Positions 2,566 through 55,618 of a stretch of 64,000 nucleotides of DNA are shown here, piece after piece. The notes under the pieces are model-generated. The model saw only the letters and a program-made list of their open reading frames with translations, was not told the DNA's origin and ran no database searches. Numbering within the stretch: position 1 is the first letter of the stretch; every line of letters begins with the position of its first letter. The position numbers and the translations under genes were made by a program. This stretch comes from a virus: IMG/VR virus record IMGVR_UViG_3300020724_000005; one strand, 5' to 3'.

Positions 2566-3381
2566 CTAAAGCTCTGTGCTCAGCCTTCTGAGGAACCTCC
2601 TGTATAGCCCCTCGTCAGTTGACCATGCTTTGATCTTGACCAGCTCAGAGTAAAAACTGTCTCTTGCAGACTCAAGCCTGTCTTTTATCCAAGGTCCTCT
2701 TAGAAAGAGGAAAGGAACTGCCGTGTTCTTGTACTCGTTGTATACCTCATCGTAGCTCTTGGTCTTTATGTCAGAGAGTGCCCTAAACAGCTGGCTTTTG
2801 ACCGCAGCCATAAGCTTCTTGTCCTTGTCTTTCTTTGCAAGCCCAGAGGCTATTGTGTTTATCAGCGTAGAGGTGTGTGCATCGAACTCAGCTGGTGAAT
2901 TTAGATGTGATATGAGGTCCTTTTCGTACTGCTCTATGTCTTCTGGGCTTGCATTCTTGCCTGGCGCTTTCGGTGCTCCAACTCCCAGCTTTGCATCTAG
3001 ATCTGGATCGAACGCTTTAGGATCTATTGCATGTATGAGCTCATGCTCTATGTTCACCGTAAAATCATGCTCGTCTGTAAGCTTTGCAAGGTTTGCCATG
3101 ACAGCCATGTTCTGCTGGTCCATCCTAGCGTATGCTCCATCCTTTGGATCGTTATACAGACCTAAGCTGATCGATGTCAGGTTGCCTCTGCGGTCTTTCA
3201 TGTTGAACATGTTCTTGAAGCTCATAGGAACATATGGATCTTGCTTGTAGCTTTTAGGCGACTTCTTCTTGAGAGAGTCTAGGTTGTTCTCTATGTAGGA
3301 GAACGCAGAACTAGCCTTTGACAGCTGGTCCTGCGGTATCTTTACTATCTTCTCTGTAAGCAGATCTATGAGCTTTATCAT
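2566..3381 (-). CDS. putative zinc metallopeptidase (HExxH) carrying the MIKLIDLL leader
   Basis: 271 aa. The N-terminus is MIKLIDLLTE and there is an HELIH motif (NIEHELIHAIDPK). Confidence 0.55.
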   Translation of the reverse strand: MIKLIDLLTEKIVKIPQDQLSKASSAFSYIENNLDSLKKKSPKSYKQDPYVPMSFKNMFNMKDRRGNLTSISLGLYNDPKDGAYARMDQQNMAVMANLAKLTDEHDFTVNIEHELIHAIDPKAFDPDLDAKLGVGAPKAPGKNASPEDIEQYEKDLISHLNSPAEFDAHTSTLINTIASGLAKKDKDKKLMAAVKSQLFRALSDIKTKSYDEVYNEYKNTAVPFLFLRGPWIKDRLESARDSFYSELVKIKAWSTDEGLYRRFLRRLSTEL

Positions 3382-3386
3382 ATGTT

Positions 3387-3394
3387 ATAAATAT
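3387..3394 (-). promoter_or_regulatory. GATATTTAT(A/T)A-type intergenic motif copy
   Basis: Plus strand reads ATAAATAT followed by C. It lies 5 nt upstream of ATG 3381 and abuts the stop of 3397..4143. Confidence 0.4.
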
Positions 3395-3396
3395 CA

Positions 3397-4143
3397 TTAA
3401 ACCTTGCTTATTATTATTTTAAAACCTTCATAATTTGACTTTTCTATTTTAGAAGATGTCAATATTATCTCTCTTATTCCAGATCTGATTTTATTCATAT
3501 CTCCAAAATTAATCTTTAACTCTTTCTTTGCTGTTGTTATTTTATCAAATTTCTTTATTAGATCTCCATCTTGATTATATAAATATGCAAATCCTAACCA
3601 TTTATAATTCTTATCTCCTTTTTTACATTCACTCCATTTTTTCCTATATTCTGGATTACTAAGTATATCTTTCATTTTATCTGAGAATTTTTTTAGATTC
3701 TCTTCATTTTTCCAATATGCATCCACTCCATTTTTTACGCTAGTTCTATACTCATCGTCTTTCCATAAATTTTTAGAAATATCAACAAATTTATGTCGTA
3801 AAATATCTTTATTAGTATTTGATGCATTTCGTAATTTTTCTCTATGCTCTTCTTTATTTGGATGATTTGTAAAATTATCTCCACCATCCCCTCCTGTAGA
3901 AATATTATAACCAATTTCTGGATTTGTAGAATTATAATAGCTGATCCAATATTGCTCTTTTATATTTAATTCCTCAATAGAAGAGCTATGATCTAATACG
4001 CCCTTTTTGAACTTATCTCGACCATAGCTCTTTATAGCATCTTTTATTTTTACTCCAGATCCAAGATAGCTTGGATCATTTTTTGTGTCTTTACCTATAT
4101 AAATTTTTCCTGATTCTAAATTTGTAGTCTTATAAATTATCAT
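3397..4143 (-). CDS. GIY-YIG homing endonuclease (free-standing)
   Basis: N-terminus MIIYKTTNLESGKIYIGKDT...YLGSG; conserved EQYW and GYNISTGG. The insert is very AT-rich compared with its neighbours. Confidence 0.85.
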   Translation of the reverse strand: MIIYKTTNLESGKIYIGKDTKNDPSYLGSGVKIKDAIKSYGRDKFKKGVLDHSSSIEELNIKEQYWISYYNSTNPEIGYNISTGGDGGDNFTNHPNKEEHREKLRNASNTNKDILRHKFVDISKNLWKDDEYRTSVKNGVDAYWKNEENLKKFSDKMKDILSNPEYRKKWSECKKGDKNYKWLGFAYLYNQDGDLIKKFDKITTAKKELKINFGDMNKIRSGIREIILTSSKIEKSNYEGFKIIISKV

Positions 4144-4172
4144 AAGGTCTTTATAATAAATATGCGGACCTT
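4144..4172 (-). promoter_or_regulatory. hairpin abutting the HEG start codon, with the motif in its loop
   Basis: AAGGTC (4144..4149) pairs with GACCTT (4167..4172). The 17-nt loop contains ATAAATAT (4156..4163). In the transcript sense the 3' arm touches ATG 4143. Confidence 0.45.
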
Positions 4173-4188
4173 GTGTAATTCAGTTAAT

Positions 4189-4872
4189 TTATATATTAAT
4201 TTCACAACTATTTCCAGCACACGCAACTTGGTCCTTAAGGTCTGTGTTGTCTTCTGCCTCTACCACCAAGCTCAGATCTATGTTAGAAAGCGACTCCATC
4301 ATTTTTTCGTAAGTCTCTTTATCGCAGTCTTGGAAAGGTGCCTGAACGTAGGTGTGGTCTGAGAATGGCAGCACTGAAAGCCCGTTGTAGCAAGTCCTGT
4401 TCTCCCACATCCACTCTCCTACAGTGTCCCACTCTCCGTCCTTTATAGAGATCGTGGCCGAGATGTTGTGTGTGTTCTGTCCTGTCTTGTGTCCTGGTTT
4501 GATCCAGTTGTTGTAGAAGTATTTTACCCTCTCGAGCAGATCTATCGCTGACTCTGTCCTCAGTATCGAACCCTCTGGCGCTTTCTGTGGGACCGAGATG
4601 ACTGCCGTGCTGTGGGGCTTGAAGTACTCGTCCTGTATCAGCTCTGGGTGGTATATGCTCAGGTACGTGTATATGGCCTCGTTCTTGCCAACTCTTATGT
4701 TTCTGATGTAGTACTCGCTGTGCCACGCATGTATGCCAGAAGATGTGCCCAGGACTAGAGAGGAGGTATTATGAACCACAGATTTATTTTTTAGTTGATA
4801 TGAATGAGTATTATCTACTTCTATGTCAACAGTAAATTTATTTCCAGACTTTGTTATTTTTTTAATTTTCAT
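4189..4872 (-). CDS. nrdJ: ribonucleotide reductase class II, C-terminal fragment preceded by a split-intein C-fragment (35 aa)
   Basis: MKIKKITKSGNKFTVDIEVDNTHSYQLKNKSVVHN then T(+1)SSLVLGTSSGIHAWHSEYYIRNIRV. Intein blocks F and G end in HN. The extein continues the RNR motif KPSG|TSS. Confidence 0.85.
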   Translation of the reverse strand: MKIKKITKSGNKFTVDIEVDNTHSYQLKNKSVVHNTSSLVLGTSSGIHAWHSEYYIRNIRVGKNEAIYTYLSIYHPELIQDEYFKPHSTAVISVPQKAPEGSILRTESAIDLLERVKYFYNNWIKPGHKTGQNTHNISATISIKDGEWDTVGEWMWENRTCYNGLSVLPFSDHTYVQAPFQDCDKETYEKMMESLSNIDLSLVVEAEDNTDLKDQVACAGNSCEINI

Positions 4873-6007
4873 AATATTTAATTAATTCTATTATATTTTC
4901 TAATACTAATTGCTTATTTTTTAAATAATTTGATTCTTTAACTCTAATTAAATTTAATCCCATATTAGCATATATCTTATCCTTTAATCTATCTCTCTCT
5001 ATATTATTAGGTAAAGAATGCCAATAATCTCCATCAAATTCAATTACAGTATTTCCTATTTTAATGTCTGGTACTATACACTTTATTTGATAATCATTCT
5101 GGTTTAGATTTATAAAATAGGGTTTTGTTATTGGGTAACCAAAAAATACCTCTTTTTGTTTATTGTTTAATAAATCATATAGTGATAAATTAAAATCTTT
5201 TTCTATATTTGAACTAAAATCTGGAAAATAACTAATTTTCTTTTTTATCATATCAGAATATAAATTCCGACCCTCTACTTCTCCAAATTTATCTATATAA
5301 TATTCTAATCTTCCAGATTTTCCTTTACTATAACATAATTCTTTATATCTATTTAAGCCTTCAATTTTTCCAAATTTAGAGATATAATAGTCTTTAGTCT
5401 GTGAATATGCTATTTTTTTATTAGCCTCATCATATTTTTCCTTTCCTATATTATCACCATACTTTTTTATATAATAATCTAACCCTCTTGATTGATTCTT
5501 ATTAACAAACTGTTTAGCTTCTAATTCACTTACTCCATAATATTTCATTACAGATTTATAATCTCTACAAGAATACCCACTGTCTATTTTCTTTTTATAT
5601 CTTAATCTACCCTCTTTTTCTCCATATTTTTTTATCATGCTTTCCAAGTCAGTCTTTGAATTAATAGAGTGTTTTGCTTTAATGTCTTTTATTTCATCAT
5701 CACTATATCCATTTAATTTTAAAGCATTTATACTAACTGAAAGTTTACTATTTTTTTCTAAATATTCCTCTCTACCTAACTCCTCCCCGTATCTTTTAAT
5801 GAATCCATTTAGGGTATTTTTAAACTTATCATTTTCTATTTTTTGTTTATATTTAAATAAGCCTAACTCTTTTCCGTATTTAAACTGTAATACTTTTAAA
5901 GAAGACCCTCGCATTAAATTTGCACATCTCTTGTTGCCCCCCTCTTCTCCAAGTAGATGAATCAGTAGTCGTCTCAGTCTATTAATCTTTTTTATATCTT
6001 TTTTCAC
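4862..6007 (-). CDS. homing endonuclease with a Vsr/DUF559-like nuclease domain (GTG start)
   Basis: The C-terminus reads IEFDGDYWHSLPNNIERDRLKDKIYANMGLNLIRV. About seven KYG-x-x-x-G-x-x-x-Y repeats lie upstream. It is very AT-rich and sits between the two nrdJ halves. Confidence 0.7.
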   Translation of the reverse strand: MKKDIKKINRLRRLLIHLLGEEGGNKRCANLMRGSSLKVLQFKYGKELGLFKYKQKIENDKFKNTLNGFIKRYGEELGREEYLEKNSKLSVSINALKLNGYSDDEIKDIKAKHSINSKTDLESMIKKYGEKEGRLRYKKKIDSGYSCRDYKSVMKYYGVSELEAKQFVNKNQSRGLDYYIKKYGDNIGKEKYDEANKKIAYSQTKDYYISKFGKIEGLNRYKELCYSKGKSGRLEYYIDKFGEVEGRNLYSDMIKKKISYFPDFSSNIEKDFNLSLYDLLNNKQKEVFFGYPITKPYFINLNQNDYQIKCIVPDIKIGNTVIEFDGDYWHSLPNNIERDRLKDKIYANMGLNLIRVKESNYLKNKQLVLENIIELIKYYEN

Positions 6008-6008
6008 A

Positions 6009-6058
6009 ATTAAGCCTTTTATTATAAATATCTGATTAATTACAATAATAGGCTTAAT
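6009..6058 (-). promoter_or_regulatory. 9-bp hairpin abutting the HEG start, with the motif in its loop
   Basis: ATTAAGCCT (6009..6017) pairs with AGGCTTAAT (6050..6058). The loop contains ATAAATATC (6024..6032). In the transcript sense the 3' arm ends 1 nt before GTG 6007. Confidence 0.45.
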
Positions 6059-6071
6059 AGTAAAAATTAAT

Positions 6072-7682
6072 CTAATAATTTATAATATCATCATCATCCT
6101 TCAATTCGTCTGCTCTAACCCACCCCCTATTTTTAGTTAAAAACCTATGATTTGCTGTAACTGTAACTACCAAACCATCTTCAAACTCCACATCAAACGT
6201 TTCTTCTACTCCATTAATGTATAATTTATTAATTTGTTGCCATTCATCATTTAAATCTTTGACTTTTATATCCTCTGTTACTTCTAAAAATAGCTTTTCG
6301 TTATTTTTAAAATCAGATAAGTCATATCCATTGATTTTAAAAATATCCTCTAATGAGAGAATACCTTTATTTGTTATTATTTCAGTTTCTGGTATCATGC
6401 ACCCACTCGGTTTTATTGTAGTGCAACGGGCTGCTGCGTTTATCCCTACCGCTTTCGCTACTGCTGCGTTCGTCTCTTTCACTATGAGAGCGGCCTTTTT
6501 AAGATCCAGCTTCTGAGCAACTCCTGACCCTATTCCAGTCATTCCTACTCCTATTAGTGCTTCTTTCTCTGTAGTCTTCTGCCATATTGGTCTGAGATAG
6601 TGAAAGTTAGTGTATCCTGCTTGTAAAGTCCCTATTATCGCTGCTGCATTTACTCTGTCATTAAGATCTTCTTGGTCTACTACGTCTGAAACATTTACCT
6701 CGCAAAGGTTGCAAAATTGATATGGTCTTAGTGCAATTTCCATACAAGGATTACTTCCTAAATCTTTATCATTACTAAGAAATATACCCGGTTCTCCTGA
6801 TCCCGAGTTCTCAATCTTCTTCCAGAGATCCATAAAGAATTCCTTTGTAAGTCTATTCCTTAAAAGTACAGCCGAGTTATTCGCTCTACCCCTTTGCGGA
6901 TTTAATTCCCACCATTGACCAGTCTTACAAGAGATCATATCCTCATCGTCAGCTGAGAATAGTGATACTAATGCCGCTCTCCTTATACCCCCAGCAAGTA
7001 CTGCATCAGCTATGTGGCAGACCATGTCGTGAACCTCTATCGAGCTGAGTTTATCTCCATCCTCTTTCTGGCTGAGTATTCCATCTAACATTAGTAAGCA
7101 CTCTTTCAGTGGTTGAGGACCTGGAGCTTTACCGCCAGAAGTAACTAGCATTGCTCCTTTTGGACGTATGTCAGAGAAGTCAAAGTTAATCGATGATCCA
7201 CCTCTGAAATAGGACTTGATCAGGGCTTTGACTGCGTCTGCCCAACCCTCTATCGAGTCTCCTATCAGGAACCTTGTGTGCTTCTTTGGGTTCGGTTTCC
7301 TTATCTCTGGCAGCTTCTCAACGTGGTGCTTCTGTACAGAGAAACCTACTCCCGTGCCACCAAGCAGCAGGAACATCGTCTCAGAGAAAGCGTGTATGTC
7401 GTCTATAGGAAGGTACGCGCAGTTATACACTCTGTTAGGAGATATCTCTATCGACTTTCCACCGAACTGCAGGCTCCTCATAGAAGGAAGCACCTTTTTA
7501 TCATATACGAATTCATAAGCCCAGTCTATCTCAGCTTGCATATTGGGATATTTCTTGAGATGCATTGCCTTGTTTCTGTCTACCAATTCTTCCCAAGACT
7601 CTCTCTTCTGTAGTTCTGGGAGGTATTTGGAATATTTTAAGTGTACTGTAATATCTGATAATATTTCCTGTGAGATATTCAT
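6072..7682 (-). CDS. nrdJ: ribonucleotide reductase class II, N-terminal fragment fused to a split-intein N-fragment (109 aa)
   Basis: RNR-like body (SLQFGG, NPCMEIAL, TTIKPSG) followed by CMIPETEIITNKG...TANHRFLT...IINY and a stop. Confidence 0.85.
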   Translation of the reverse strand: MNISQEILSDITVHLKYSKYLPELQKRESWEELVDRNKAMHLKKYPNMQAEIDWAYEFVYDKKVLPSMRSLQFGGKSIEISPNRVYNCAYLPIDDIHAFSETMFLLLGGTGVGFSVQKHHVEKLPEIRKPNPKKHTRFLIGDSIEGWADAVKALIKSYFRGGSSINFDFSDIRPKGAMLVTSGGKAPGPQPLKECLLMLDGILSQKEDGDKLSSIEVHDMVCHIADAVLAGGIRRAALVSLFSADDEDMISCKTGQWWELNPQRGRANNSAVLLRNRLTKEFFMDLWKKIENSGSGEPGIFLSNDKDLGSNPCMEIALRPYQFCNLCEVNVSDVVDQEDLNDRVNAAAIIGTLQAGYTNFHYLRPIWQKTTEKEALIGVGMTGIGSGVAQKLDLKKAALIVKETNAAVAKAVGINAAARCTTIKPSGCMIPETEIITNKGILSLEDIFKINGYDLSDFKNNEKLFLEVTEDIKVKDLNDEWQQINKLYINGVEETFDVEFEDGLVVTVTANHRFLTKNRGWVRADELKDDDDIINY

Positions 7683-9407: not shown

Positions 9408-10127
9408 TTATATATTTGGTTTTTTATATTTGCACTTATCAAAATGCCACTGAGTCATTCCGTTATTTCCTCCAATTTTATTACAATGCGGACATTGTAT
9501 TTTTGGATTTTTTATTCCTAATCTATTAGTATTTCCTATTTTAGATATGCTCAATTTTCTTTTATGTTCTTCTGATTTAGATTTTCCCTTAAGAGCTCTG
9601 CTAATATTTGCCTTCTCTAATTCTGATTTTACTCTATTTTTTTGACCTTTAGAAATTGATTCTCTATGTTGTAAAGATAAACATATCCCTAATTTAGATT
9701 TTCTTATATTTAATTTAGTTTCTTCTGATCTTACTTTTCCCGTATTCGATTCTTTCATCTTTTTTTTAGTATCATCAGAAACTAAATGGCCTTTTCTGGA
9801 TAATCTATATAATCGTTTTGTTTCTTCAGAATGTTTAAAACCAAATTGACCTTGTCCACCATCTGTCATATTAACTAAAGGTCCCAATTTAAGATCTGCT
9901 CTTCCATAGAATATAATCCAAAATTTTTCTTTTTCACAGGCTTCTTCCCAAGTTAACCATTCTTCTGACATAATTTCTACTTTATATTCTGTAAGATTAA
10001 TCACATTATTCCAATGAATATTTCTGTTCTTTTTTGAATAAGATCTTTTATAGTTTTTATCTGATCCTATTCCTATATAAAAAACCTCATTCTTGTCTAG
10101 TCTTATATGACGATACACATATGCCAT
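9408..10127 (-). CDS. GIY-YIG homing endonuclease with NUMOD3-like repeats and a C-terminal CPHC zinc finger
   Basis: MAYVYRHIRLDKNEVFYIGIGSD; repeats HSEETKRLY, SDDTKKKMK, SEETKLNIR, SEEHKRKLS; C-terminus CPHCNKIGGNNGMTQWHFDKCKYK. AT-rich. Confidence 0.85.
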   Translation of the reverse strand: MAYVYRHIRLDKNEVFYIGIGSDKNYKRSYSKKNRNIHWNNVINLTEYKVEIMSEEWLTWEEACEKEKFWIIFYGRADLKLGPLVNMTDGGQGQFGFKHSEETKRLYRLSRKGHLVSDDTKKKMKESNTGKVRSEETKLNIRKSKLGICLSLQHRESISKGQKNRVKSELEKANISRALKGKSKSEEHKRKLSISKIGNTNRLGIKNPKIQCPHCNKIGGNNGMTQWHFDKCKYKKPNI

Positions 10128-10137
10128 AAAATAAAAA

Positions 10138-10232
10138 TGGTCCAAAGTGACAAAGAGCCTGCATGCTCTCTATCTCAAAGGACCAATAAGTTCTATTATA
10201 GATAACTCATGCAGGAGCTTCTATCTATAATA
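10138..10232 (-). promoter_or_regulatory. structured HEG leader (copy 1): two hairpins with complementary loops enclosed by a long-range helix
   Basis: Hairpin S1 pairs 10194..10204 with 10222..10232. Its loop CTGCAT is complementary to loop ATGCAG of hairpin 2 (stem 10154..10158 with 10165..10169). The outer helix pairs TGGTCC (10138..10143) with GGACCA (10180..10185). Confidence 0.6.
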
Positions 10233-10237
10233 AATAT
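10230..10237 (-). promoter_or_regulatory. GATATTTAT(A/T)A-type motif copy
   Basis: ATAAATATC overlaps the 5' arm of leader hairpin S1, 102 nt upstream of ATG 10127. Confidence 0.4.
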
Positions 10238-11133
10238 CAGGAAATACTTGCTAAATACTTAAAGTTTGTGTATAGCCACGAAGGTAGGTTTGTGATGCTC
10301 TGTCCCAGTTGATCTTCGTTATACATCTCTGTAAACTCTGTTGGATAGTAGTCCTTCTTTGGGTTGCCCATCATCTGGTCTATCTCCTCTTGTGCCTCTG
10401 CTGGTATGTTAGGCTCGTCTAGGTCCATGAGCTTCTTGTTGATCTCTAGCTGGCTTCTGAAGTCGTAGATCTTTTTGAGCATTGCAACATCGCCGTCCTT
10501 GCACTTCTCTATGACATGCTCTAGACTGATAGTAGCACTTTTTCCTAACTCTGGAAAGTGTTTAAGCAAAGTCTTGATGCCTAATCCCTTTACCCCAGGA
10601 ACGTTGTCTCCTTTGTCGCCAAGCAGCACCTTCTGGGTTAGAAAGTTGTGAGACGTCACTTCGTACTCGCTCAAGACGTCTTTTGGAGAATAGAACTTCT
10701 TCTTTGTAGGTGAGTATATGCTGATCCTGTCCGATGCAAGCTGAAGGTAATCTCGGTCCGAAGACATGATGGTCACCTCTTTTCCTATGCGCTTTGCTAT
10801 GTATCCTATGACATCGTCTGCCTCTATCTTGTCTATCGATAGCAGATCTATGGGAAGACATTTGAGGTAGTCCACGAGCCTCAGAAGCTGGTTCTTGATG
10901 GCATCAGACTCCTCTTCTTGGGAATCGAACATGTCCCAGTTTGTGATTCTCTTTATACCCCTATTTGCTTTGTACTCAGGATAGAGGTAACGCTTATTTG
11001 TTGAGCTACCGCGGCCATCAAATACTACTATGACACGTGTTGGTCTTATCAGTCTCATCCCATATGCCATCGACTTGAGAAACCCAGTTAGAGCTCCTAT
11101 GTGCTGTCCAGCTGGGTTCACGTGCTGGATCAT
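10237..11133 (-). CDS. flap endonuclease / 5'-3' exonuclease, main segment (as listed in the ORF track)
   Basis: VVFDGRGSSTNKRYLYPEYKANR, EADDVIGYIA, SSDRDYLQL, LLGDKGDNVPGVKGLGIKT. The N-terminal DG strand is missing from this ORF and lies upstream, across an in-frame TAA. Confidence 0.85.
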   Translation of the reverse strand: MIQHVNPAGQHIGALTGFLKSMAYGMRLIRPTRVIVVFDGRGSSTNKRYLYPEYKANRGIKRITNWDMFDSQEEESDAIKNQLLRLVDYLKCLPIDLLSIDKIEADDVIGYIAKRIGKEVTIMSSDRDYLQLASDRISIYSPTKKKFYSPKDVLSEYEVTSHNFLTQKVLLGDKGDNVPGVKGLGIKTLLKHFPELGKSATISLEHVIEKCKDGDVAMLKKIYDFRSQLEINKKLMDLDEPNIPAEAQEEIDQMMGNPKKDYYPTEFTEMYNEDQLGQSITNLPSWLYTNFKYLASIS

Positions 11134-11157
11134 CGCGAAGGATCGGAGAAAGTTGTT

Positions 11158-11166
11158 GAGTTAAAG
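11158..11166 (-). other. candidate recoding site CUU-UAA-CUC inside the flap-endonuclease reading frame
   Basis: The minus strand reads GGT CTT TAA CTC AAC, with TAA at 11161..11163. The frame is conserved on both sides (KVFIVDGL * LNNFLRSFAM). Confidence 0.5.
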
Positions 11167-11265
11167 ACCGTCGACTATGAAAACCTTTGAATTCAGGCTT
11201 AAGTCGACGGTCTGTGTATTATTTTGTGAAAGATCATTTATCATTTCTGCATATCTACTATTCAT
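11164..11265 (-). CDS. flap endonuclease 5' segment (34 codons), in frame with 10237..11133
   Basis: My own translation gives MNSRYAEMINDLSQNNTQTVDLSLNSKVFIVDGL. KVFIVDG is the canonical first catalytic Asp strand of FEN/5'-3' exonucleases. It is too short to appear in the ORF track. Confidence 0.6.
11165..11213 (-). other. 11-bp GC-rich hairpin inside the FEN 5' segment
   Basis: AGACCGTCGAC (11165..11175) pairs with GTCGACGGTCT (11203..11213), with a 27-nt loop. Confidence 0.6.
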
Positions 11266-11279
11266 ATTCTACTATAGAT

Positions 11280-11843
11280 TTAATTTTTATATTTACAATT
11301 ATCAAAATGCCACTGGATCATATTACTCTTATTTGCTATTTTTTTACAATGCGGACATTGGGCCAAAGGCCTATTTTTAGCAGATTCACTTTGTGCAATT
11401 TTAGTTTTTTCTGATGTTTTTAATTCTTTATTCCACGTATTCATTCCAATGAAAAATGATCCTGAATTTACTTTATGTGGAAATTTTTTATCTTTATTCC
11501 ATGGAATTCTATTTTTAATACTTTCAATATAGCATTGTTTAGCTTCTACTGATATTCTTATACTATGTCTACCTGTATTTTTATCTTTAATGCACATTAA
11601 ATGAAAAGCATATGTTAATTTTTTATTTTCAGGAAAACTTCTATGTAATAACCAGTGCGCTAATATATGCTCTCTAATAGTTAATAAAACTATATTTTTA
11701 TTGTTTGTATTTCTTCTATCACCAATTCCTCCCAAACATATTGGCACTATGTGATGAGACTCGTAATAAACCTCTTTATTTTTTGTTCTTTTCTCCAATT
11801 TACATTTGCAGACTAATCTATTATATATTTTTAAGTAATCCAT
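11280..11843 (-). CDS. HNH homing endonuclease with a C-terminal CPHC zinc finger
   Basis: MDYLKIYNRL...YYESHHIVPICLGG...NIVLLTIREHILAHWLL; C-terminus CPHCKKIANKSNMIQWHFDNCKYKN. I chose ATG 11843 by analogy with the paralogue at 45814. Confidence 0.85.
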   Translation of the reverse strand: MDYLKIYNRLVCKCKLEKRTKNKEVYYESHHIVPICLGGIGDRRNTNNKNIVLLTIREHILAHWLLHRSFPENKKLTYAFHLMCIKDKNTGRHSIRISVEAKQCYIESIKNRIPWNKDKKFPHKVNSGSFFIGMNTWNKELKTSEKTKIAQSESAKNRPLAQCPHCKKIANKSNMIQWHFDNCKYKN

Positions 11844-11852
11844 AAAATAAAA

Positions 11853-11953
11853 TGGACTCATTGAAGTCAAAGGTCGGGCAATGACCAATGATTCTAGAGT
11901 CCAATAAGTTTATTATAGATAGTTAATTGCCCTAACTTTCTATCTATAATAAA
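11853..11953 (-). promoter_or_regulatory. structured HEG leader (copy 2)
   Basis: Hairpin S1 pairs 11909..11922 with 11940..11953 (14 bp). Its loop GGGCAAT is complementary to loop ATTGCCC of hairpin 2 (stem 11872..11875 with 11883..11886). The outer helix pairs TGGACTC (11853..11859) with GAGTCCA (11897..11903). Confidence 0.6.
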
Positions 11954-11956
11954 TAC
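11949..11956 (-). promoter_or_regulatory. variant motif copy (ATAAATAC)
   Basis: It sits in the same position relative to leader hairpin S1 as the copy at 10230, 105 nt upstream of ATG 11843. Confidence 0.3.
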
Positions 11957-11963
11957 TTGATTT

Positions 11964-13046
11964 TTAAGAATCTTCAATATCAAATATATCATTTTTTGAT
12001 GGATCCTCTTCTTCTACAATATCAAATATCTCAGAACCTAGCGCCTTTATCCACTCATGCGAATATTCATTTTTATATTTACTTATCGCTGATGGAGAAT
12101 CATCAATAAAACCATGCACTGTCATTATAACTTTGCCTACAGCTGTAACTCCAGTTATGTGATTTTTATCGCATGAAATTCTAGTTCTCTTAGCAAATTC
12201 CACGTCTTTTCCATTTTTTGTAGCTTTTATTTTATTAGTCCCCGCCTTTGAAATATTCCCGAAAGTGATTACAAGAGTAGAGTCAAACCACATAGTATTA
12301 CCTCCTTTATTTTGTAAAGTTGGTTGTCCCATTGGATTATCTGGTTTTGCTACCCAAACTTTATTTATTGCTACAAGTGTATTGGTGTAGGGTTGGCTCT
12401 CCTTTCTCGACATAATGATACGTTGATTGATGAAGTTGCCAAATTGAGTCGACATAGCACCTGCAGCCCACTCATTATTATTAGTGGATTTTTCTATGCT
12501 CAGACGACAAGGTATAGACCCCACCGAGTCCCACAGAAAGCATATGTCATACGGTAGATTGCCTTTCTTCTGCTCGTCTAAGATGTCTGCCATAAATCCC
12601 GCCACGTCCTCTACGCACTGCATCTTTTCCCTGTCTACGTATATGAAGAAGCCACTGTAATCTACCACTTCTCCTGTTGACTTATCGACGACCTCATCAA
12701 ATTGTAAACCCATTGACCTTGCGTGCTCCCAAGACCATTTCATCTCGGTAACTATAAACACTGGGAGTATGCCCATCTTTTGAGCTTGCACTGCTGCTTC
12801 TAATAGCGCAGTAGTCTTGCCAGTATCTGAGTGTCCTCGTAGTAGAGTGATGTGTCCTATCGGTATGCCAGGGATCTGAAGTGTATCACTGAAAGCCTTG
12901 GAGAGAGGTATCCACCTCGTCTCCTTGAACTTTACAGATGTGCTTGATAGGTTCTTGGACTTCTTGAATTTGTCCAGATTGAATTCGCCTTTGATGGCTG
13001 TAGAGAGAGCCCCATTGAGGCTCTCTTTCTTTTCTGATTTTGCCAT
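11964..13046 (-). CDS. RecA-superfamily recombinase/ATPase (UvsX/RadA-like)
   Basis: Walker A GHSDTGKTT, Walker B-like ICFLWDSVGS, 360 aa. It lies next to the SSB gene. Confidence 0.55.
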   Translation of the reverse strand: MAKSEKKESLNGALSTAIKGEFNLDKFKKSKNLSSTSVKFKETRWIPLSKAFSDTLQIPGIPIGHITLLRGHSDTGKTTALLEAAVQAQKMGILPVFIVTEMKWSWEHARSMGLQFDEVVDKSTGEVVDYSGFFIYVDREKMQCVEDVAGFMADILDEQKKGNLPYDICFLWDSVGSIPCRLSIEKSTNNNEWAAGAMSTQFGNFINQRIIMSRKESQPYTNTLVAINKVWVAKPDNPMGQPTLQNKGGNTMWFDSTLVITFGNISKAGTNKIKATKNGKDVEFAKRTRISCDKNHITGVTAVGKVIMTVHGFIDDSPSAISKYKNEYSHEWIKALGSEIFDIVEEEDPSKNDIFDIEDS

Positions 13047-14405: not shown

Positions 14406-14420
14406 AACCTGATTGTTTTT

Positions 14421-14428
14421 ATAAATAT
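14421..14428 (-). promoter_or_regulatory. GATATTTAT(A/T)A-type motif copy
   Basis: ATAAATATC, 15 nt upstream of ATG 14405. Confidence 0.4.
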
Positions 14429-29746: not shown

Positions 29747-29760
29747 AACGTGATTTGATT

Positions 29761-29768
29761 ATAAATAT
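29761..29768 (-). promoter_or_regulatory. motif copy
   Basis: ATAAATAT, 14 nt upstream of ATG 29746. Confidence 0.35.
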
Positions 29769-40800: not shown

Positions 40801-40814
40801 TTTTTGTGTTTATA

Positions 40815-40822
40815 ATAAATAT
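40815..40822 (-). promoter_or_regulatory. GATATTTAT(A/T)A-type motif copy
   Basis: ATAAATATC, 14 nt upstream of ATG 40800. Confidence 0.4.
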
Positions 40823-41837: not shown

Positions 41838-42155
41838 CTAAAGAGTAGACTTGAAAATGTAAACTTTTCCTTCAAGGTCTAATATATCTTTTATAGCAAG
41901 GTTCAGTTCTTTTGTTATTTTTTGGGATAGATCTGCTATTCCTTTGTTAGAAGAGTGCTTGTATATATCTAAATTCTTTTTGACGTCTCTAAGAGATTTT
42001 GCAAACTTTTTAAAGTCTGCTACATTGTATACTTGGGTCTTTACACTTCCAGTTTCTGGGTCTATCGTCTCTGGCCCTTGTAAGAATCCCTTCTTCATCA
42101 ATTTATCGACGTCTATTATTTCCTCGTCTTCAATTAAAAGATCTATCAGTTTCAT
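41838..42155 (-). CDS. leader-bearing small protein (MKLIDLLIE...)
   Basis: I moved the start to ATG 42155 because the track's N-terminal extension runs through the capsid-gene terminator. The N-terminus is MKLIDLLIED. Confidence 0.55.
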   Translation of the reverse strand: MKLIDLLIEDEEIIDVDKLMKKGFLQGPETIDPETGSVKTQVYNVADFKKFAKSLRDVKKNLDIYKHSSNKGIADLSQKITKELNLAIKDILDLEGKVYIFKSTL

Positions 42156-43993: not shown

Positions 43994-45529
43994 TTAGATG
44001 CCTGCTAGTTTCTGCATTCTTGCTATGAAAGGATCAGACTCCAGTGTGTTTCCTTTTGGAGCTCCGCCTGTTGGCTTAGATGCAAATCCTGAGAAGGATT
44101 CTTTTAATTGTTTCTTAGGAGCAGCAGTTATTGATTCGCTGATGAACTTAAATGTGTTCTTCACTTCTTTAACCGACGTCGCTCTATCGAATGCATTCAG
44201 GACCTTTACTTTTTGTGCTTCAGTAAGAGATTTAGATTTGAAGATCTTGTTAACATAAAGAAGCTTAGCGTTCAGAAGATTGATCTCATTCAGCTCTTTC
44301 TGCATCAGTTTGATTGCTTTCTTAGCCTCTTCGAGTTCTTTCTTTTCTGCCATCTTTTTCTTCTCTTCCATCTTCTTCTTCTCGTGCATTTTCTTTTTGG
44401 CTTCTTCCATGTGATGCTTAGCTTCGTCCATTTCGTCTTCTTCTTCATCATCCTCTTCGCCTTCGTCTTCGAGTTCAGCTAGAATCTCATCAAGAGAAAC
44501 TTCATCATCACCAGCTTCTGCGCCTTCTCCACCTTCGTGGCCAGCCATTGCAGCTTTGATTGCGTTTACAAGATCTCCAAGAGTTACGTCAACAACTTTG
44601 GTGTCTTCTTCAGACTCTTTGCCGTCTTCTCCCTCTTCTTCATCTTCTTCTTCGTCGTCTTCTTCTTTGGCTTCTTCCATTTCGTCGTAATGTTCGTCTA
44701 GCTCTTCTTCATGTTTGGCTTTCTTTTTCTTTTTAGCCTCGTCCATGTGGTGTTTAGCTTCGTCCATTTCGTCTTCTTCTTCATCGTCTTCTTCATGGTG
44801 AGCTTCGTCCATTTCTTCGAGTTCGTCTAGGATCTCATCAAGATACTTTTCATCAAGATTACCAGGATCTGCTTCGTCCATTTCGTCATAGCCTTCTTCC
44901 ATGTCTTCAATAGCGCCTTTATGAGCTGGAGCATGTTTGTAACCGGCTTCTTTTGAGCGATGTGCTTTATTTGTATGCACAATGTGCTCTGCCTCGTCCA
45001 TCTCTTCTTCAGATTCGTCCATTGATAGAATATCTTCTATACTCTCAGTCTCTGGATCATTTTCTTCTGAGTGTATGTGAGTTGCGCCCATTTTTTTAGC
45101 GGCCTTTGCAATCATCTTCCAGAATTTATCAACATCTTCACCAGTACGTTCTACAACTTTAGCAGTTTTACCGTTAAATTCAACTGTAGCTTCATGTTCA
45201 CCAGAAGGTGATGTATATACTTCTGCTGTTGTTGCTTGATCACCATCTTCTCCTTCGTCCATTTCATCATACTCATCTAAATCTTCGATCGCGCCTTTAT
45301 GAGCTGGAGCATGTTTGTAACCGGCTTCATGACTACGAGCTGATTTCTTTGTGTGAACGATGTGCTCTGCTTCGTCCATTTCTTCTTCTTCAGATTCTAC
45401 GATGTGTTTCTTCAACATCGCTTTGATCTTTGGCTCGAATGCTTCTTGAATCGCAGCTTTAGCGTTGGCCATGGCGCTTTCACGAACTGCTTTTGCATCA
45501 GCAACAGCCTGAGTGTAAATACTTTCCAT
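43994..45529 (-). CDS. prohead scaffold/core protein (gp22-like), highly acidic and repetitive
   Basis: 511 aa, Glu/Asp/Lys/His-rich, with EMDEA repeated six times. It lies between the protease and the capsid gene. Confidence 0.7.
   Translation of the reverse strand: MESIYTQAVADAKAVRESAMANAKAAIQEAFEPKIKAMLKKHIVESEEEEMDEAEHIVHTKKSARSHEAGYKHAPAHKGAIEDLDEYDEMDEGEDGDQATTAEVYTSPSGEHEATVEFNGKTAKVVERTGEDVDKFWKMIAKAAKKMGATHIHSEENDPETESIEDILSMDESEEEMDEAEHIVHTNKAHRSKEAGYKHAPAHKGAIEDMEEGYDEMDEADPGNLDEKYLDEILDELEEMDEAHHEEDDEEEDEMDEAKHHMDEAKKKKKAKHEEELDEHYDEMEEAKEEDDEEEDEEEGEDGKESEEDTKVVDVTLGDLVNAIKAAMAGHEGGEGAEAGDDEVSLDEILAELEDEGEEDDEEEDEMDEAKHHMEEAKKKMHEKKKMEEKKKMAEKKELEEAKKAIKLMQKELNEINLLNAKLLYVNKIFKSKSLTEAQKVKVLNAFDRATSVKEVKNTFKFISESITAAPKKQLKESFSGFASKPTGGAPKGNTLESDPFIARMQKLAGI
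44873..45013 (-). repeat. scaffold internal repeat, copy 2
   Basis: SEEEMDEAEHIVHTNKAHRSKEAGYKHAPAHKGAIEDMEEGYDEMDE. Confidence 0.8.
45254..45394 (-). repeat. scaffold internal repeat, copy 1
   Basis: SEEEEMDEAEHIVHTKKSARSHEAGYKHAPAHKGAIEDLDEYDEMDE. Confidence 0.8.
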
Positions 45530-45708: not shown

Positions 45709-45716
45709 ATATTTAT
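45709..45716 (+). promoter_or_regulatory. GATATTTAT(A/T)A-type motif copy in plus orientation
   Basis: GATATTTATAA read on the plus strand, 97 nt upstream of the only plus-strand gene (ATG 45814). Confidence 0.45.
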
Positions 45717-45720
45717 AATA

Positions 45721-45802
45721 AATTGCTACTGGTACTAGTAATTAACAAAGATATTGAGTCATCATAGATGGAGTTGTACCAGAACTCTGTTTATTTTGAC
45801 TC
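45721..45802 (+). promoter_or_regulatory. structured HEG leader (copy 3, plus strand)
   Basis: Hairpin S1 pairs AATTGCTA with TAGTAATT (45721..45728 with 45736..45743) around loop CTGGTAC. Hairpin 2 pairs GAGTT with AACTC (45771..45775 with 45783..45787) around loop GTACCAG. The outer helix pairs GAGTCA (45756..45761) with TGACTC (45797..45802). Confidence 0.6.
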
Positions 45803-45813
45803 ACTTTTATTTT

Positions 45814-46446
45814 ATGGATCATCTCAAAATTTACAATAGGATCATTGCAAAGGCTAAATTAGAAGGGAGAAAAAAACTTTCTAGAGATCATAATGATTAT
45901 GTCTACTACGAAGCTCATCATATCATTCCAAGATGTTTAGGAGGTATGAATGATAAAACTAATATAGTACTACTTACAGCTAGAGAGCATTTTATCGTCC
46001 ATTGGTTATTATATGAAACTGATAATGGAAATGTAAAATTAGCTTTGGCATTTTTTATGATGTGTAATACTAAAGATCACAATCAATTAAGATACATTCC
46101 AAGTTCTAGAATTATAGAATATTCAAAAAATCAACACTCTAAGTATCACCACTCAAAACTACCTAAATTTAAAAAAATAAATTCTGATTTAAGAAAAGGA
46201 AAATCTATAGTAGAACAGTTTGGAAAGCAAAAAGCTTTAGAATGTTCAATTAAAAAATCTAATTCTTTAAAACTGAGCTATCTAAATGACCCCACACTAT
46301 CAAAAAGAAAAAGTGATTCTATGAAAGGAAAAAATAAAATTGTTCGTAAATTTACATGCCCACATTGCGGAAAAATAGGAGGAATTTCTACTATGAAACA
46401 GAAACATCTTCCTATATGTAAATCAGCTCAAACAGCAAATCCCTGA
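45814..46446 (+). CDS. HNH homing endonuclease with a C-terminal CPHC zinc finger
   Basis: MDHLKIYNRIIAKAKLEGRKK...YYEAHHIIPRCLGG...NIVLLTAREHFIVHWLL; C-terminus CPHCGKIGGISTMKQKHLPICK. The track ORF starts at TTG 45754; I prefer ATG 45814. Confidence 0.85.
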   Translation: MDHLKIYNRIIAKAKLEGRKKLSRDHNDYVYYEAHHIIPRCLGGMNDKTNIVLLTAREHFIVHWLLYETDNGNVKLALAFFMMCNTKDHNQLRYIPSSRIIEYSKNQHSKYHHSKLPKFKKINSDLRKGKSIVEQFGKQKALECSIKKSNSLKLSYLNDPTLSKRKSDSMKGKNKIVRKFTCPHCGKIGGISTMKQKHLPICKSAQTANP

Positions 46447-54895: not shown

Positions 54896-55599
54896 TTTAA
54901 AAATTGTCTCATCGATTTTAATAACTGGGGTTGTTCTTCATAATTAATCATATTCGCATTTTTCTTAAACCAACTATCTGAAATTATTACCATTTTATAA
55001 GAATTATCTTTACACCATGATAATGCGCTTTTAAATTTAATTATATTTTTAGGATCCGATTTTAATTTTGATGGTTTTATTTCATATAAAATTTTTTTGT
55101 CAAAATCAACGAAATCTACTATATAAGATGATACTTTATTTTGATATTCATATTGTATTCTTACTTTTTCGTAGTCTAGATGTTGATTTAATAGAAAAAA
55201 TACAGCTTCCCAATTACTTCTGAATTTTTTTATGTCATCTTTAATTTTAATATAGCTTTTCCAATTTGTCCAACTATTAGTTATGCATGGCGTAAATTTA
55301 CCTTCTTTTATAAGTCTCTTTAATCTTATTGAATTCTGTCTTCGTGCTTCTATTACTCTAGGACTACTCTTAATCTTTTCTTTATGTTCCTGTGTCGATA
55401 CAGTTTTTTTATTTGATTCTACTCTTTTTCTTTTTGTTTCTTCTGAATCTTTATGGTGATTATGTGAAGTCCAACATGGTTGAGTACAGTATTTTTTATT
55501 TTCTTTTTTTGTTAAATATCTCTTTCCACATCCGGAACATTCTTTTTCTATAGGTTCTTTCCAATTCCACGAGTGTTTTTTAATATTCTCTATAAACAT
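54892..55599 (-). CDS. homing endonuclease with an N-terminal zinc finger and a PD-(D/E)xK-like C-terminal domain
   Basis: CSGCGKRY...YCTQPCW; NUMOD3-like HKDSEETKRKRVES; C-terminus YIVDFVDFDKKILYEIKPSKL. It is very AT-rich, and its ATGA overlaps the IntC start. Confidence 0.65.
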   Translation of the reverse strand: MFIENIKKHSWNWKEPIEKECSGCGKRYLTKKENKKYCTQPCWTSHNHHKDSEETKRKRVESNKKTVSTQEHKEKIKSSPRVIEARRQNSIRLKRLIKEGKFTPCITNSWTNWKSYIKIKDDIKKFRSNWEAVFFLLNQHLDYEKVRIQYEYQNKVSSYIVDFVDFDKKILYEIKPSKLKSDPKNIIKFKSALSWCKDNSYKMVIISDSWFKKNANMINYEEQPQLLKSMRQFLK

Positions 55600-55610
55600 T
55601 TGCTTTTACT

Positions 55611-55618
55611 ATAAATAT
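55611..55618 (-). promoter_or_regulatory. GATATTTAT(A/T)A-type motif copy
   Basis: ATAAATATC, 11 nt upstream of the HEG ATG 55599. It overlaps the stop of the terL N fragment. Confidence 0.4.

Follow-up and report, generated by a model that had tools for sequence, protein, structure and literature searches.

What is the element that precedes three homing-endonuclease genes of this phage, and what could it do there? In the 64,000-nucleotide stretch of viral DNA analysed here (the window), each of these genes follows a ~95-nt RNA leader made of two hairpins with mutually pairing 7-nt loops. The order is shared by all three copies: a promoter-like box, hairpin A, a linker, the long hairpin B, a U-run and the AUG, and the apical loops of hairpins A and B are perfectly complementary in every copy. 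The pairings named in a preliminary description of copy 1 and its two counterparts are all present. Its helix H3, said to enclose 35–37 nt, encloses 36, 37 and 35 nt in copies 1, 2 and 3, and the distance from the H3 3' arm to the AUG, given as 9–11 nt, measures about 9–10 nt. Three features extend that description: (i) the outer stem carried by hairpin A of copies 1 and 2; (ii) a middle helix between H3 and hairpin 2; and (iii) the nature of the 9–11 nt between H3 and the AUG, which form a U-run and have a terminator-like look. The features are as follows.

10236..10125, minus strand: copy 1 leader, with loop L1 CUGCAU at 10214..10209, loop L2 AUGCAG at 10164..10159 and H3 arms at 10185..10180 and 10143..10138
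10226..10236, minus strand: copy 1 promoter-like box TATTTATTATA, agreeing with the Bacteroidetes -7 element at 6/8 positions and overlapping the 5' arm of the hairpin A outer stem
10192..10234, minus strand: copy 1 hairpin A, a 13-bp outer stem, bulge and 4-bp inner stem, from the minimum-free-energy fold, inner-stem covariation and L1/L2 complementarity
10138..10185, minus strand: copy 1 hairpin B, with H3 UGGUCC/GGACCA, a middle part and hairpin 2 bearing L2; dG -23.8 kcal/mol; H3 and H2 covary
10128..10137, minus strand: copy 1 U-run UUUUUAUUUU, separating hairpin B from the AUG (10127..10125)
9408..10127, minus strand: copy 1 gene, a GIY-YIG homing endonuclease of 239 aa with NUMOD3 and a C-terminal CPHC..WHFDxC finger
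11955..11841, minus strand: copy 2 leader, with L1 GGGCAAU at 11932..11926 and L2 AUUGCCC at 11882..11876
11945..11955, minus strand: copy 2 promoter-like box TATTTATTATA
11909..11953, minus strand: copy 2 hairpin A, a 13–14 bp outer stem, GAAA bulge and inner stem GUUA/UAAC
11853..11903, minus strand: copy 2 hairpin B, with H3 UGGACUC/GAGUCCA, middle helix GAAUCA/UGAcUUC and H2 GGUC/GACC
11844..11852, minus strand: copy 2 U-run UUUUAUUUU, followed by the AUG at 11843..11841
11280..11843, minus strand: copy 2 gene, an HNH homing endonuclease of 187 aa; an identical leader and gene are found in IMG/VR locus L052
45710..45816, plus strand: copy 3 leader, with L1 CUGGUAC at 45729..45735 and L2 GUACCAG at 45776..45782
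45710..45720, plus strand: copy 3 promoter-like box TATTTATAATA
45721..45743, plus strand: copy 3 hairpin A, a short form of 8 bp lacking the outer stem and beginning at the probable +1
45755..45803, plus strand: copy 3 hairpin B, a 12-bp upper stem above H3 UGAGUCA/UGACUCA
45804..45813, plus strand: copy 3 U-run CUUUUAUUUU, followed by the AUG at 45814..45816
45814..46446, plus strand: copy 3 gene, an HNH homing endonuclease of 210 aa

These cassettes are homing-endonuclease insertions between or against essential genes, copies 1 and 2 being located in the replication module. The copy 3 gene is antisense to all its neighbours, so box TATTTATAATA is its only plausible promoter; no close relative of its endonuclease was found in IMG/VR.

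Is the fold real? The three window leaders folded 4.2–6.1 sd better than dinucleotide shuffles, and a covariance model run over the 64 kb window returned these three copies and no others. In leaders of related contigs, the hairpin A loop has its exact reverse complement in the hairpin B apical loop in 32/32 distinct cases, as against 0/926 matches among non-cognate loop combinations. About 25 different loop pairs occur across the family, some in both polarities, and a search of the window for a third partner of the loops found none. In each of two separate alignments, 5 of the 7 pairs of the kiss helix show changes on both sides and all stems covary, with pair counts reached by 0/500 shuffles and by no slid control. 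Both alignments contain many G-U pairs, which would be A-C mismatches on the opposite strand, and the structure was therefore assigned to the sense-strand RNA. Run on the raw MAFFT alignment, RNAalifold recovered hairpin A only, since the hairpin B sequences were misaligned; structures given by hand and alignments built from the model were used instead. An alignment count put the kiss helix at 65% paired, one H2 class being shifted by one column, and the loops were assessed by direct string tests. With three copies, the three-way covariation originally read from the window was thin evidence; the case now stands on more than 100 sequences. Loop matching, shuffles and covariation in relatives together establish the conserved, covarying two-hairpin leader that the preliminary description had proposed. 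Two apical loops within one RNA that covary and are Watson-Crick complementary define the intramolecular kissing-loop folds, to which the leader is predicted to belong.

Is the leader an endonuclease element? Pattern and covariance-model searches of IMG/VR returned more than 120 distinct leaders, carried by more than 100 uncultured Bacteroidota phage contigs. A covariance-model search of relatives, a step the preliminary description had called for, placed the leader upstream of homing-endonuclease genes in about 45 related contigs; there and in this window, HNH_3 genes join the GIY-YIG and HNH genes already recognised downstream. The proposal of a portable cassette was borne out, as the same leader and loop pair precede different endonuclease families at different insertion sites. 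Its restriction to homing endonucleases was not, because in other Bacteroidota phages a larger subfamily of the same architecture (subfamily 2) mostly precedes replication-initiator genes, and also a DNA methyltransferase gene and others. Across the family, hairpin A has a 4–8 bp stem and a 7-nt loop, and the linker is 12–19 nt long, A-rich and ends in CUUAUU at its 3' side. Hairpin B spans ~50 nt (~-20 kcal/mol) in three stacked helices, capped by the 7-nt apical loop complementary to that of hairpin A; its base helix directly abuts a 9–13 nt U-run, and the start codon forms the last bases of that run. The linker and bulges are conserved in sequence and the helices are variable. We found no association of loop identity with endonuclease family or insertion site. 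Homing-endonuclease genes of the same phages that have no leader show an A-rich initiation region directly after the promoter box.

Outside these contigs, megablast and blastn searches with the region and the leaders gave no match in 50,697 phage records. Protein searches reached only distant isolates, the closest being Flavobacterium phage immuto, whose DnaB is 54% identical, and the Bacteroides phages SJC, with 40% identity in the terminase; neither the first 50 kb of immuto nor SJC22 contained a leader recognised by the covariance models. A genome-collection scan of 185,579 species, with a pattern that required the hairpin A of the homing-endonuclease type, yielded only chance palindromes, and to the extent of that pattern the element seems confined to viral contigs. 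The RNA layout is that of a promoter-proximal module of phages infecting Bacteroidota, which would act in cis.

Where does the transcript begin? The preliminary description had counted the GATATTTAT motif as a leader component; it proved to be a general promoter-like motif of the phage that lies outside the RNA fold. The box recurs on the gene strand 0–27 nt upstream of about 18 window genes, mostly structural, and the window motif TATTTATW is found 3–4 nt before the ATG in three genes. The Bacteroidetes -7 element, TAHHTTTG, has a known spacing of 4–5 nt to the start site, and in subfamily 2 a canonical TAHHTTTG box lies 4–7 nt before hairpin A. By this spacing, transcription would start 0–2 nt before hairpin A, placing hairpin A at the transcript 5' end. 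In copies 1 and 2, as in about 45 related cassettes, the box itself supplies the 5' strand of the hairpin A outer stem, a perfect 13–14 bp duplex, so that, with such a start site, only transcripts reading through from the upstream gene could form this stem. Copy 3 and subfamily 2 have no promoter box in an outer-stem arm. An antisense promoter in the palindrome was rejected, the conserved first bases of the motif being missing on the other strand, as was a leader peptide, since in-frame upstream starts are not conserved.

What happens at the other end? Hairpin B has a median dG of -20.6 kcal/mol with an H3 of 5–8 bp, its stem is separated from the U-run by 0 nt in 65/78 leaders, and in a hairpin-A-anchored scan all 50 distinct matches continued directly into a U-run and then ATG. 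A stable, G-C-containing stem with a U-tract of at least 7 nt within 0–2 nt is what defines an intrinsic terminator by sequence, and hairpin B has both. A terminator score was only modestly positive (median +9.7) and negative for 7/41 leaders, including copy 3. Hairpin B went unflagged in a simple terminator scan, which allows loops of 3–8 nt, because this hairpin contains internal loops. Canonical hairpin-plus-U terminators exist in these phages.

The initiation region is equally distinctive. Positions -10 to -1 hold 8–9 Ts in the three leader genes against a median of 2 (maximum 7) in the other window genes. In F. johnsoniae, A at -3, -6, -12 and -13 promotes translation and U at -3 is unfavourable. 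At these positions, 45–62% of the other window genes have A; the leaders have U, U, C and C/U, the last two (-12 and -13) being paired. The U-run and AUG are unpaired in all folds and a Shine-Dalgarno site is absent. The initiation region has none of the positive determinants known for Flavobacterium. The earlier idea of low translation fits this sequence. Transcription termination appears at least as likely a role as the translational throttle or tie to one promoter first suggested. The AUG always lies at the U-run end, 9–12 nt from the stem, an arrangement that a pure terminator would not need, which suggests a translational role. Such a role could even be activating, as in structured leaders lacking a Shine-Dalgarno site, for example that of E. 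coli rpsA.

Does the leader correspond to a known system? Consistent with the initial impression that no equivalent had been described, Rfam 15 gave 0 matches for the whole window at gathering score, only a chance snoRNA match elsewhere for window positions 10100–11980 at E<=10, and 0 matches for four subfamily-2 loci at E<=1. No description was found in the literature; the leader may be present, unnamed, among the 8,495 candidate RNAs of an IMG/VR catalogue (PMC10690425).

The nearest parallels are hairpins of T4 homing-endonuclease genes (I-TevI, I-TevII, I-TevIII, segB, Aeh1 mobE), which carry a late promoter in their 5' arm and form only in read-through transcripts. As there, a structured RNA lies directly upstream of a homing-endonuclease gene embedded in an early/middle operon, and in copies 1 and 2 a promoter-like box overlapping the outer-stem arm would give the same promoter-in-arm layout. 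However, the T4 hairpins sequester a Shine-Dalgarno site, whereas here, with a Bacteroidota host, there is no such site and the initiation region, U-run and AUG included, is unpaired in all folds, so that a T4-type hairpin sequestering the ribosome-binding site was rejected. Moreover, the T4 elements are single hairpins without loop-loop pairing, the promoter-bearing stem here belongs to hairpin A, ~70 nt upstream of the AUG, and the leader also serves non-endonuclease genes. T4 mobE and segF carry intrinsic terminators in their 5' part, and the promoter-leader-terminator units of lambda (PR'-tR', tR1) likewise place a stable stem and U-run near a gene start. The leader shares with mobE and segF a stable stem followed by a U-run close to the gene start, and a proposed role in letting fewer transcripts enter a selfish or tightly controlled gene. 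Unlike these terminators, its hairpin is ~50 nt long with internal loops, the loop is engaged in a predicted kiss and the start codon lies in the U-run; here termination is a proposal.

Loop-loop or pseudoknot contacts control replication-initiator genes in ColE1 (RNAI/RNAII), R1 (CopA/CopT) and IncI-alpha/IncB plasmids (the repZ/repA activator pseudoknot). The leader resembles these systems in its fully complementary 6–7 nt loops, which there decide the outcome, in a loop sequence that serves as a specificity code differing between co-residents, and in the position of subfamily 2 before replication-initiator genes. Plasmid kisses, however, are intermolecular (with an antisense RNA) or connect a loop with a sequence adjacent to the ribosome-binding site, whereas both loops here belong to one leader, the partner loop lies ~35 nt from the AUG and no antisense RNA is evident. 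The purine riboswitch aptamer, with its L2-L3 kissing loops, and the HK022 put RNAs, a promoter-proximal hairpin pair that acts on RNA polymerase, are likewise compact two-hairpin folds in 5' leaders. With the riboswitch the leader also shares a loop-loop-held fold followed by a terminator-type expression platform, but it has no enclosing P1 helix or conserved junction for a ligand pocket, and its loops are Watson-Crick paired over all 7 nt and freely variable. The put hairpins do not kiss, whereas hairpins A and B have complementary loops. HEARO, the omega RNA of IscB, is likewise structured and encoded immediately before an HNH nuclease gene. This assignment was rejected: no model matched, the proteins are GIY-YIG, HNH and HNH_3 enzymes with NUMOD or zinc-finger modules and not IscB, and the variable segments cannot be guides because they are paired with each other. 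A group I intron with an endonuclease gene was discarded as well, given no Rfam intron match and cassettes that lie between complete genes; in immuto, a relative without the homing endonucleases, the same genes are directly adjacent with no cassette between them.

What, then, is the function of the leader? We tentatively favour, at close to an even chance, a promoter-proximal, cis-acting expression throttle locked by the kiss, in which an attenuator is combined with a poor initiation region. Hairpin B and the U-run would act as an intrinsic-terminator-like attenuator at which many transcripts stop just before the AUG, and those that continue would offer ribosomes a poorly suited, structure-flanked initiation region. 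The kiss would keep the long hairpin B folded and shield the 5' end. In copies 1 and 2, where the outer stem would form in read-through transcripts only, the two transcript classes could fold differently, as for T4 I-TevI.

Several points count against this picture, among them the fixed AUG position, the modest terminator score and the scan in which hairpin B went unflagged. A throttle also leaves unexplained both the exactness of loop pairing and the divergence of co-resident copies. Replication initiators are needed early, which would be odd with a strong constitutive terminator unless an antiterminator exists.

The loop pair may also be a private address code that confines RNA-RNA recognition to its own transcript, a conceivable though unlikely addition. 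If recognition must stay within a transcript, each co-resident copy would need an orthogonal 7-nt pair, and such pairs are present in 9/9 multi-copy contigs. Expression would then be set by the kiss forming in cis, failing, or forming in trans between transcripts. Such a leader would be a factor-independent, self-addressed terminator or translation switch that tells own-promoter from read-through transcripts, or senses the concentration of its own RNA. This would be a regulatory principle undescribed for bacterial or phage leaders, in a phylum whose initiation signals are poorly understood.

Several other explanations compete with attenuation and poor initiation. In a transcript switch of the T4 I-TevI type, own-promoter transcripts would kiss and be ON, whereas the outer stem of read-through transcripts would swallow ~10 nt of linker, block the kiss and keep them OFF. 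The promoter box within the outer-stem arm of copies 1 and 2 and their relatives is what this switch predicts, the outer stem is maintained by compensatory and wobble changes, and 38/42 cassettes begin 0–24 nt downstream of a gene on the same strand. The box is found before late structural genes, whereas copies 1 and 2 sit in the replication module, and T4 provides the precedent. That antisense copy 3 has no outer stem agrees too, but this association is a single case. Subfamily 2 also directly follows same-strand genes yet has no outer stem, and there is no evident mechanism for kiss-activated expression. We therefore regard the switch as rather unlikely.

The leader might instead govern RNA stability or processing. 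A flush 5' hairpin and closed kiss would oppose 5'-end-dependent decay, and in read-through transcripts the long hairpin A, or a coaxial stack through the kiss, would offer RNase III a site at which to cut the cassette free of the upstream message. Hairpin A at the probable +1 in all subfamilies and the perfect duplex of the outer stem point this way, as does the processing of T4 segB, segG and Aeh1 mobE transcripts by RNase E. In other systems, mRNAs are stabilised by 5' stem-loops, and the loop-loop complexes formed by S. aureus RNAIII are cut by RNase III. However, a simple 5' hairpin would suffice for protection, and the U-run abutting hairpin B and the fixed AUG position find no explanation; we consider this role doubtful.

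We judge it similarly doubtful that the leader is a protein operator, recognised through the kissing-complex shape and the conserved linker AAACUUAUUGG. Such a protein might be an antiterminator or NusG-like factor of the phage, a repressor of translation or, in autoregulation, the DNA-binding product of the downstream gene. Conservation of linker and bulges amid variable helices would be expected of an operator, the downstream genes encode DNA-binding proteins, and I-TevI autoregulates. Rop binds kissing complexes regardless of sequence, and the UpxY factors of Bacteroides act on 5' leaders. Against this, the downstream proteins are mutually unrelated, which makes a common autoregulator unlikely, and no candidate factor gene was identified.

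Could the leader be a stand-alone small RNA of ~95–100 nt that begins at the promoter, ends at the hairpin B terminator and acts in trans, with the downstream gene expressed by read-through? A promoter, a structured RNA and a terminator-like 3' end do occur in that order, and several cassettes (L027, L073, L059) keep an intact leader despite a truncated endonuclease reading frame. Co-resident copies always have different loop pairs (9/9 multi-copy contigs), as expected if RNA-RNA specificity matters. Nevertheless, the AUG always stands directly at the end of the element, no leader copy without a downstream gene start was found, and the variable loops pair with each other, so there is no free seed region. 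A small RNA is thus improbable. Finally, a DNA-level element (cruciform, replication origin or recombination site) is very improbable, as is chance similarity of AT-rich intergenic regions: the outer stem is a perfect DNA palindrome and subfamily 2 adjoins replication-initiator genes, where origins often sit, but the G-U pairs, a loop-loop complementarity without DNA-level rationale and an orientation that is always that of the downstream gene speak against DNA, and shuffle folding and the loop statistics exclude chance.

Shine-Dalgarno pairing is not used in Bacteroidota or their phages, for which few cis-regulatory RNAs are known. A compact and abundant leader with very clear covariation provides a clean test case. 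It lies at the probable 5' end of transcripts for two gene classes that need tight dosing, homing nucleases and replication initiators. Its covariance model flags endonuclease cassettes and the promoter-proximal starts of genes in contigs of uncultured phages, and the roughly 25 kissing pairs of 7 bp, naturally orthogonal and all on one scaffold, are a possible parts list for RNA engineering. If the leader is an attenuator or translational throttle, it would be a defined element for the study of gene control in Flavobacteria-type hosts, and would show that selfish endonuclease cassettes bring their own expression insulation.

In the transcript sense, all three leaders of the window are built in the same order: a TATTTATWATA box, a 5' hairpin (hairpin A, with loop L1), an A-rich linker, a long 3' hairpin (hairpin B, with loop L2), a U-run and the AUG. 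Pairing between L1 and L2 forms the kiss.

10236..10125, minus strand, leader copy 1, loops CUGCAU and AUGCAG
11955..11841, minus strand, leader copy 2, loops GGGCAAU and AUUGCCC
45710..45816, plus strand, leader copy 3, loops CUGGUAC and GUACCAG

Every pairing listed in the preliminary description was present when the sequences of the three regions were read. Single-sequence folding gave the same two-hairpin structure in 3/3 leaders (fold z-scores of -6.1, -5.5 and -4.2 versus dinucleotide shuffles), and covariance models retrieved exactly these three copies within the 64-kb window. Folding also showed two elements absent from that description, a middle helix inside hairpin B and, in hairpin A of copies 1 and 2, an outer stem of 13-14 bp in which the TATTTAT box forms the 5' arm.

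The window belongs to an uncultured myovirus, and a nucleotide search of 50,697 phage records returned no match. With Flavobacterium phage vB_FspM_immuto (immuto) it shares 54% identity in DnaB and the gene order SSB-RecA-exonuclease-DnaB. Because immuto has this order with no intervening genes, copies 1 and 2 and their endonuclease genes are insertions. The copy-3 endonuclease gene, the sole window gene not on the minus strand, is an antisense insertion between the next gene and a gene (43994-45529, minus strand) for an extremely acidic 511-aa protein with internal EEMDEA.. repeats, which adjoins the major head protein gene and whose product is probably scaffold-like. As first proposed, the leader precedes both GIY-YIG and HNH enzymes (one and two genes, respectively), and all three enzymes carry a C-terminal CPHC...WHFDxC module. 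This zinc-finger-like module (CPHCxKxG...M.QWHFDxCK), also seen in many IMG/VR cassette proteins, indicates domain shuffling among endonuclease families behind a common leader.

9408-9500, minus strand, zinc-finger-like C-terminal module
11280-11330, minus strand, zinc-finger-like C-terminal module
46350-46446, plus strand, zinc-finger-like C-terminal module

The 5'-3' exonuclease (FEN) gene that lies downstream of endonuclease copy 2 is interrupted (11134-11265 and 10237-11133, both minus strand). Between its true N-terminus, which aligns with immuto residues 2-40, and the remainder stand an in-frame TAA ('FIVDGL*LNNFLRSFAM') and an insertion of two codons; immediately 5' of the stop there is an 11-bp inverted repeat, GACCGTCGACT/AGTCGACGGTC. 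The gene could be a pseudogene, an assembly error, a case of recoding or a scar at an endonuclease target. Other mobile elements occur in regions 3397-7682 and 53468-56217 (both minus strand). There is a fourth, GIY-YIG-like endonuclease gene without a leader (3397-4143, minus strand); the ribonucleotide reductase gene (6072-7682, minus strand) has an intein-like end followed by ORFs with REase-like domains (4189-5914), and the terminase large subunit gene is apparently split by ORF 54892-55599.

The motif GATATTTAT, which had been described as part of the leader, does recur before the leaders, but it is a general promoter-like box rather than a part of the RNA fold: it lies on the gene strand 0-27 nt 5' of ~18 window genes, including those for tail sheath, tail tube, baseplate hub, head-tail adaptor and terminase. 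Examples of the phage-wide box, upstream of mostly structural genes, are as follows.

40811-40821, minus strand, box (G)ATATTTATW
29757-29767, minus strand, box (G)ATATTTATW
14417-14427, minus strand, box (G)ATATTTATW
3383-3393, minus strand, box (G)ATATTTATW

The box behaves in immuto as it does in the window, being strand-specific and intergenic. It matches the Bacteroidetes -7 element TAHHTTTG at 6/8 positions, suggesting that late genes use a sigma specificity modified or encoded by the phage. In F. johnsoniae, transcription starts 4-5 nt downstream of TAHHTTTG. At three window genes the box-to-ATG distance is just 3-4 nt, which fits this spacing and thus implies leaderless mRNAs. By the same rule, own-promoter transcripts of the leaders would start at leader A13, at the base of inner hairpin A, where pairing in the short hairpin begins in 3/3 window copies, so that only read-through transcripts from upstream would include the outer stem's 5' arm. 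Separately, six window genes that otherwise differ begin with the peptide MIKLIDLL(K/T)E, as does at least one gene of immuto (also locus L205, ~24977). Two of these genes start 0-1 nt after the promoter-like box and probably yield leaderless mRNAs; the common 5' stretch of coding sequence may act as a signal for initiation.

2566-3381, minus strand, gene starting MIKLIDLL(K/T)E
41838-42155, minus strand, gene starting MIKLIDLL(K/T)E
56322-56780, minus strand, gene starting MIKLIDLL(K/T)E
57030-57407, minus strand, gene starting MIKLIDLL(K/T)E
58045-58284, minus strand, gene starting MIKLIDLL(K/T)E
61967-62437, minus strand, gene starting MIKLIDLL(K/T)E

GIY-YIG homologues in IMG/VR also carry the leader, with new loop pairs, one of which is just one compensatory pair away from copy 1 (CUGCAC/GUGCAG versus CUGCAU/AUGCAG). 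A pattern anchored on the outer stem of hairpin A found 44 loci, a promoter-to-start pattern added more, and the covariance model of these endonuclease-type leaders (R1) gave 46 matches in the first 68 sources and further matches later. An exact reverse complement of L1 was found in hairpin B, always apical, in 32/32 distinct leaders versus 0/926 non-cognate combinations. The loops are 43-71% G+C versus ~30% in the leaders, and their duplexes are predicted at -6 to -10 kcal/mol. Paired cells make up 84.6% of the model alignment versus 73.9% in shuffles, and 25 pairs show two-sided changes; the observed values were reached by 0/500 shuffles, with slid controls at 31-43%. Each of the ~42 leaders of this type stands ahead of a homing endonuclease gene, and these genes come from several unrelated families (HNH_3, HNH/I-HmuI-like, GIY-YIG/I-TevI-like, with NUMOD modules). 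Of the leaders, 38/42 start 0-24 nt past a same-strand gene's stop codon, and the insertion sites are many and different. The leader is a portable module, since a given leader with its loop pair occurs before endonucleases of different families and at different sites. The outer stem is kept by compensatory and wobble changes; it would be possible only in read-through RNA, where it would take up ~10 of the 16-19 nt linker. Leaderless endonuclease genes (the fourth of the window and one at L002) have the same promoter box directly 5' and A-rich initiation regions.

When the search was anchored on the linker, hairpin B and U-run alone, it returned at least 106 loci and at least 85 distinct sequences, and the majority of the matches listed form a second subfamily (subfamily 2). 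Here a canonical TAHHTTTG box stands 4-7 nt before a short hairpin A, as in GGAU-GUAGGAU-AUCC, for which the hairpin B loop AUCCUAC is the exact complement; by the 4-5 nt rule, transcription would start 0-2 nt before hairpin A. The linker, ending in AAACUUAUUGG, and the U-run followed by AUG are as in endonuclease-type leaders. Loops include GUAGGAU, GUCGGAU, GUGAGAU, GUACGAG, GUACCAG, GUACCAU and AUGCGAC, each with its complement, and since the CUGGUAC/GUACCAG pair is found in both polarities, complementarity alone matters. Subfamily 2 precedes replication initiators, replisome organisers and Lin1244-type proteins, as well as a DNA methyltransferase, an ABC/GNAT protein and some HNH_3 endonucleases, so the initial view of an endonuclease-linked cassette was too narrow. 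At one locus (L244) the upstream gene encodes a winged-helix protein and its stop codon touches the promoter box. A second alignment, of 24 sequences (subfamily 2 and copy 3), has 92.2% of cells paired versus 76.2% in shuffles and two-sided changes in 21/25 pairs, again with 0/500 shuffles reaching the observed values (slid controls, 36-50%). The helix covariation proposed from the three copies thus holds in both alignments. U-A/U-G and C-G/U-G alternations are common in both, which places the structure on the sense-strand RNA and counts against a DNA-level element. Co-resident copies always differ in their loop pairs (9/9 multi-copy contigs, window included), which is suggestive, not conclusive, given loop frequencies. 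Two sipho-like contigs with host-type promoter boxes carry two leaders each: L274 (439-532 and 5591-5684) pairs GUAGGAU with GUGAGAU and L263 (1959-2051 and 3209-3301) GUAGGAU with GUACGAG, the second copy preceding an HNH_3 endonuclease gene and a replication initiator gene, respectively.

What could such a leader do? Hairpin B (median dG -20.6 kcal/mol) has its base helix flush with the U-run, with a gap of 0, in 65/78 leaders, and a scan anchored on hairpin A alone found a U-run of 9-13 nt ending in ATG in 50/50 distinct matches. As judged from sequence, hairpin B and the U-run have the anatomy of an intrinsic terminator, and the leader qualifies both as such a terminator and as an intramolecular kissing fold. 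A computed terminator score is modestly positive in 34/41 leaders; canonical intrinsic terminators are also present in the leader-carrying phages. Leader genes are outliers, with 8-9 U in positions -10..-1; across 60 other window genes the median is 2 and the maximum 7. They also have U, U, C and C/U at -3, -6, -12 and -13, where other window genes have A in 45-62%. In F. johnsoniae, translation is stimulated by A at these four positions, and U at -3 is a mark of genes with poor translation.

We tentatively favor a cis-acting module that sets downstream expression low, a reading to which we give somewhat less than an even chance. Hairpin B together with the U-run would act as an attenuator of transcription immediately before the AUG, continuing transcripts would present an intrinsically weak start site with structure on its flanks, and the kiss would make the long hairpin more stable and fold the 5' end into a compact, closed structure. 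Such a role matches the strategy known for T4 endonuclease genes, which includes 5' terminators (mobE, segF), processing of transcripts and control by promoters placed in hairpins. A T4-like switch that tells own-promoter from read-through transcripts, with the kiss as the active state, is unlikely, and an element for stability or RNase III processing slightly more so, on a par with a protein operator; none of the three explains why the loop code is so exact and so diverse. Nor does a free-standing small RNA, the least probable of these readings.

No Rfam 15 family matches endonuclease-type leaders or subfamily 2, and we found no description of the leader in the literature, in line with the first impression that it lacks a described equivalent; a catalogue of IMG/VR candidate RNAs may include it unnamed. 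No leader-carrying cultured phage was found among phage records, with covariance models covering the first 50 kb of immuto and the Bacteroides phage SJC22. A T4-type RBS hairpin, an intron and an IscB omega RNA were each rejected as its identity. Most likely, it is a phage cis-regulatory leader or attenuator, and its unusual feature would be the self-addressed kissing lock. Several natural variants offer useful controls: hairpin A is precisely collapsed at L060 (3286-3371) and replaced by unrelated sequence at L234 (13867-13959), both with hairpin B intact, and at L027 (6153-6266), L073 and L059 an intact leader precedes a truncated endonuclease reading frame. The leader occurs in a phylum, the Bacteroidota, whose expression signals are poorly charted.
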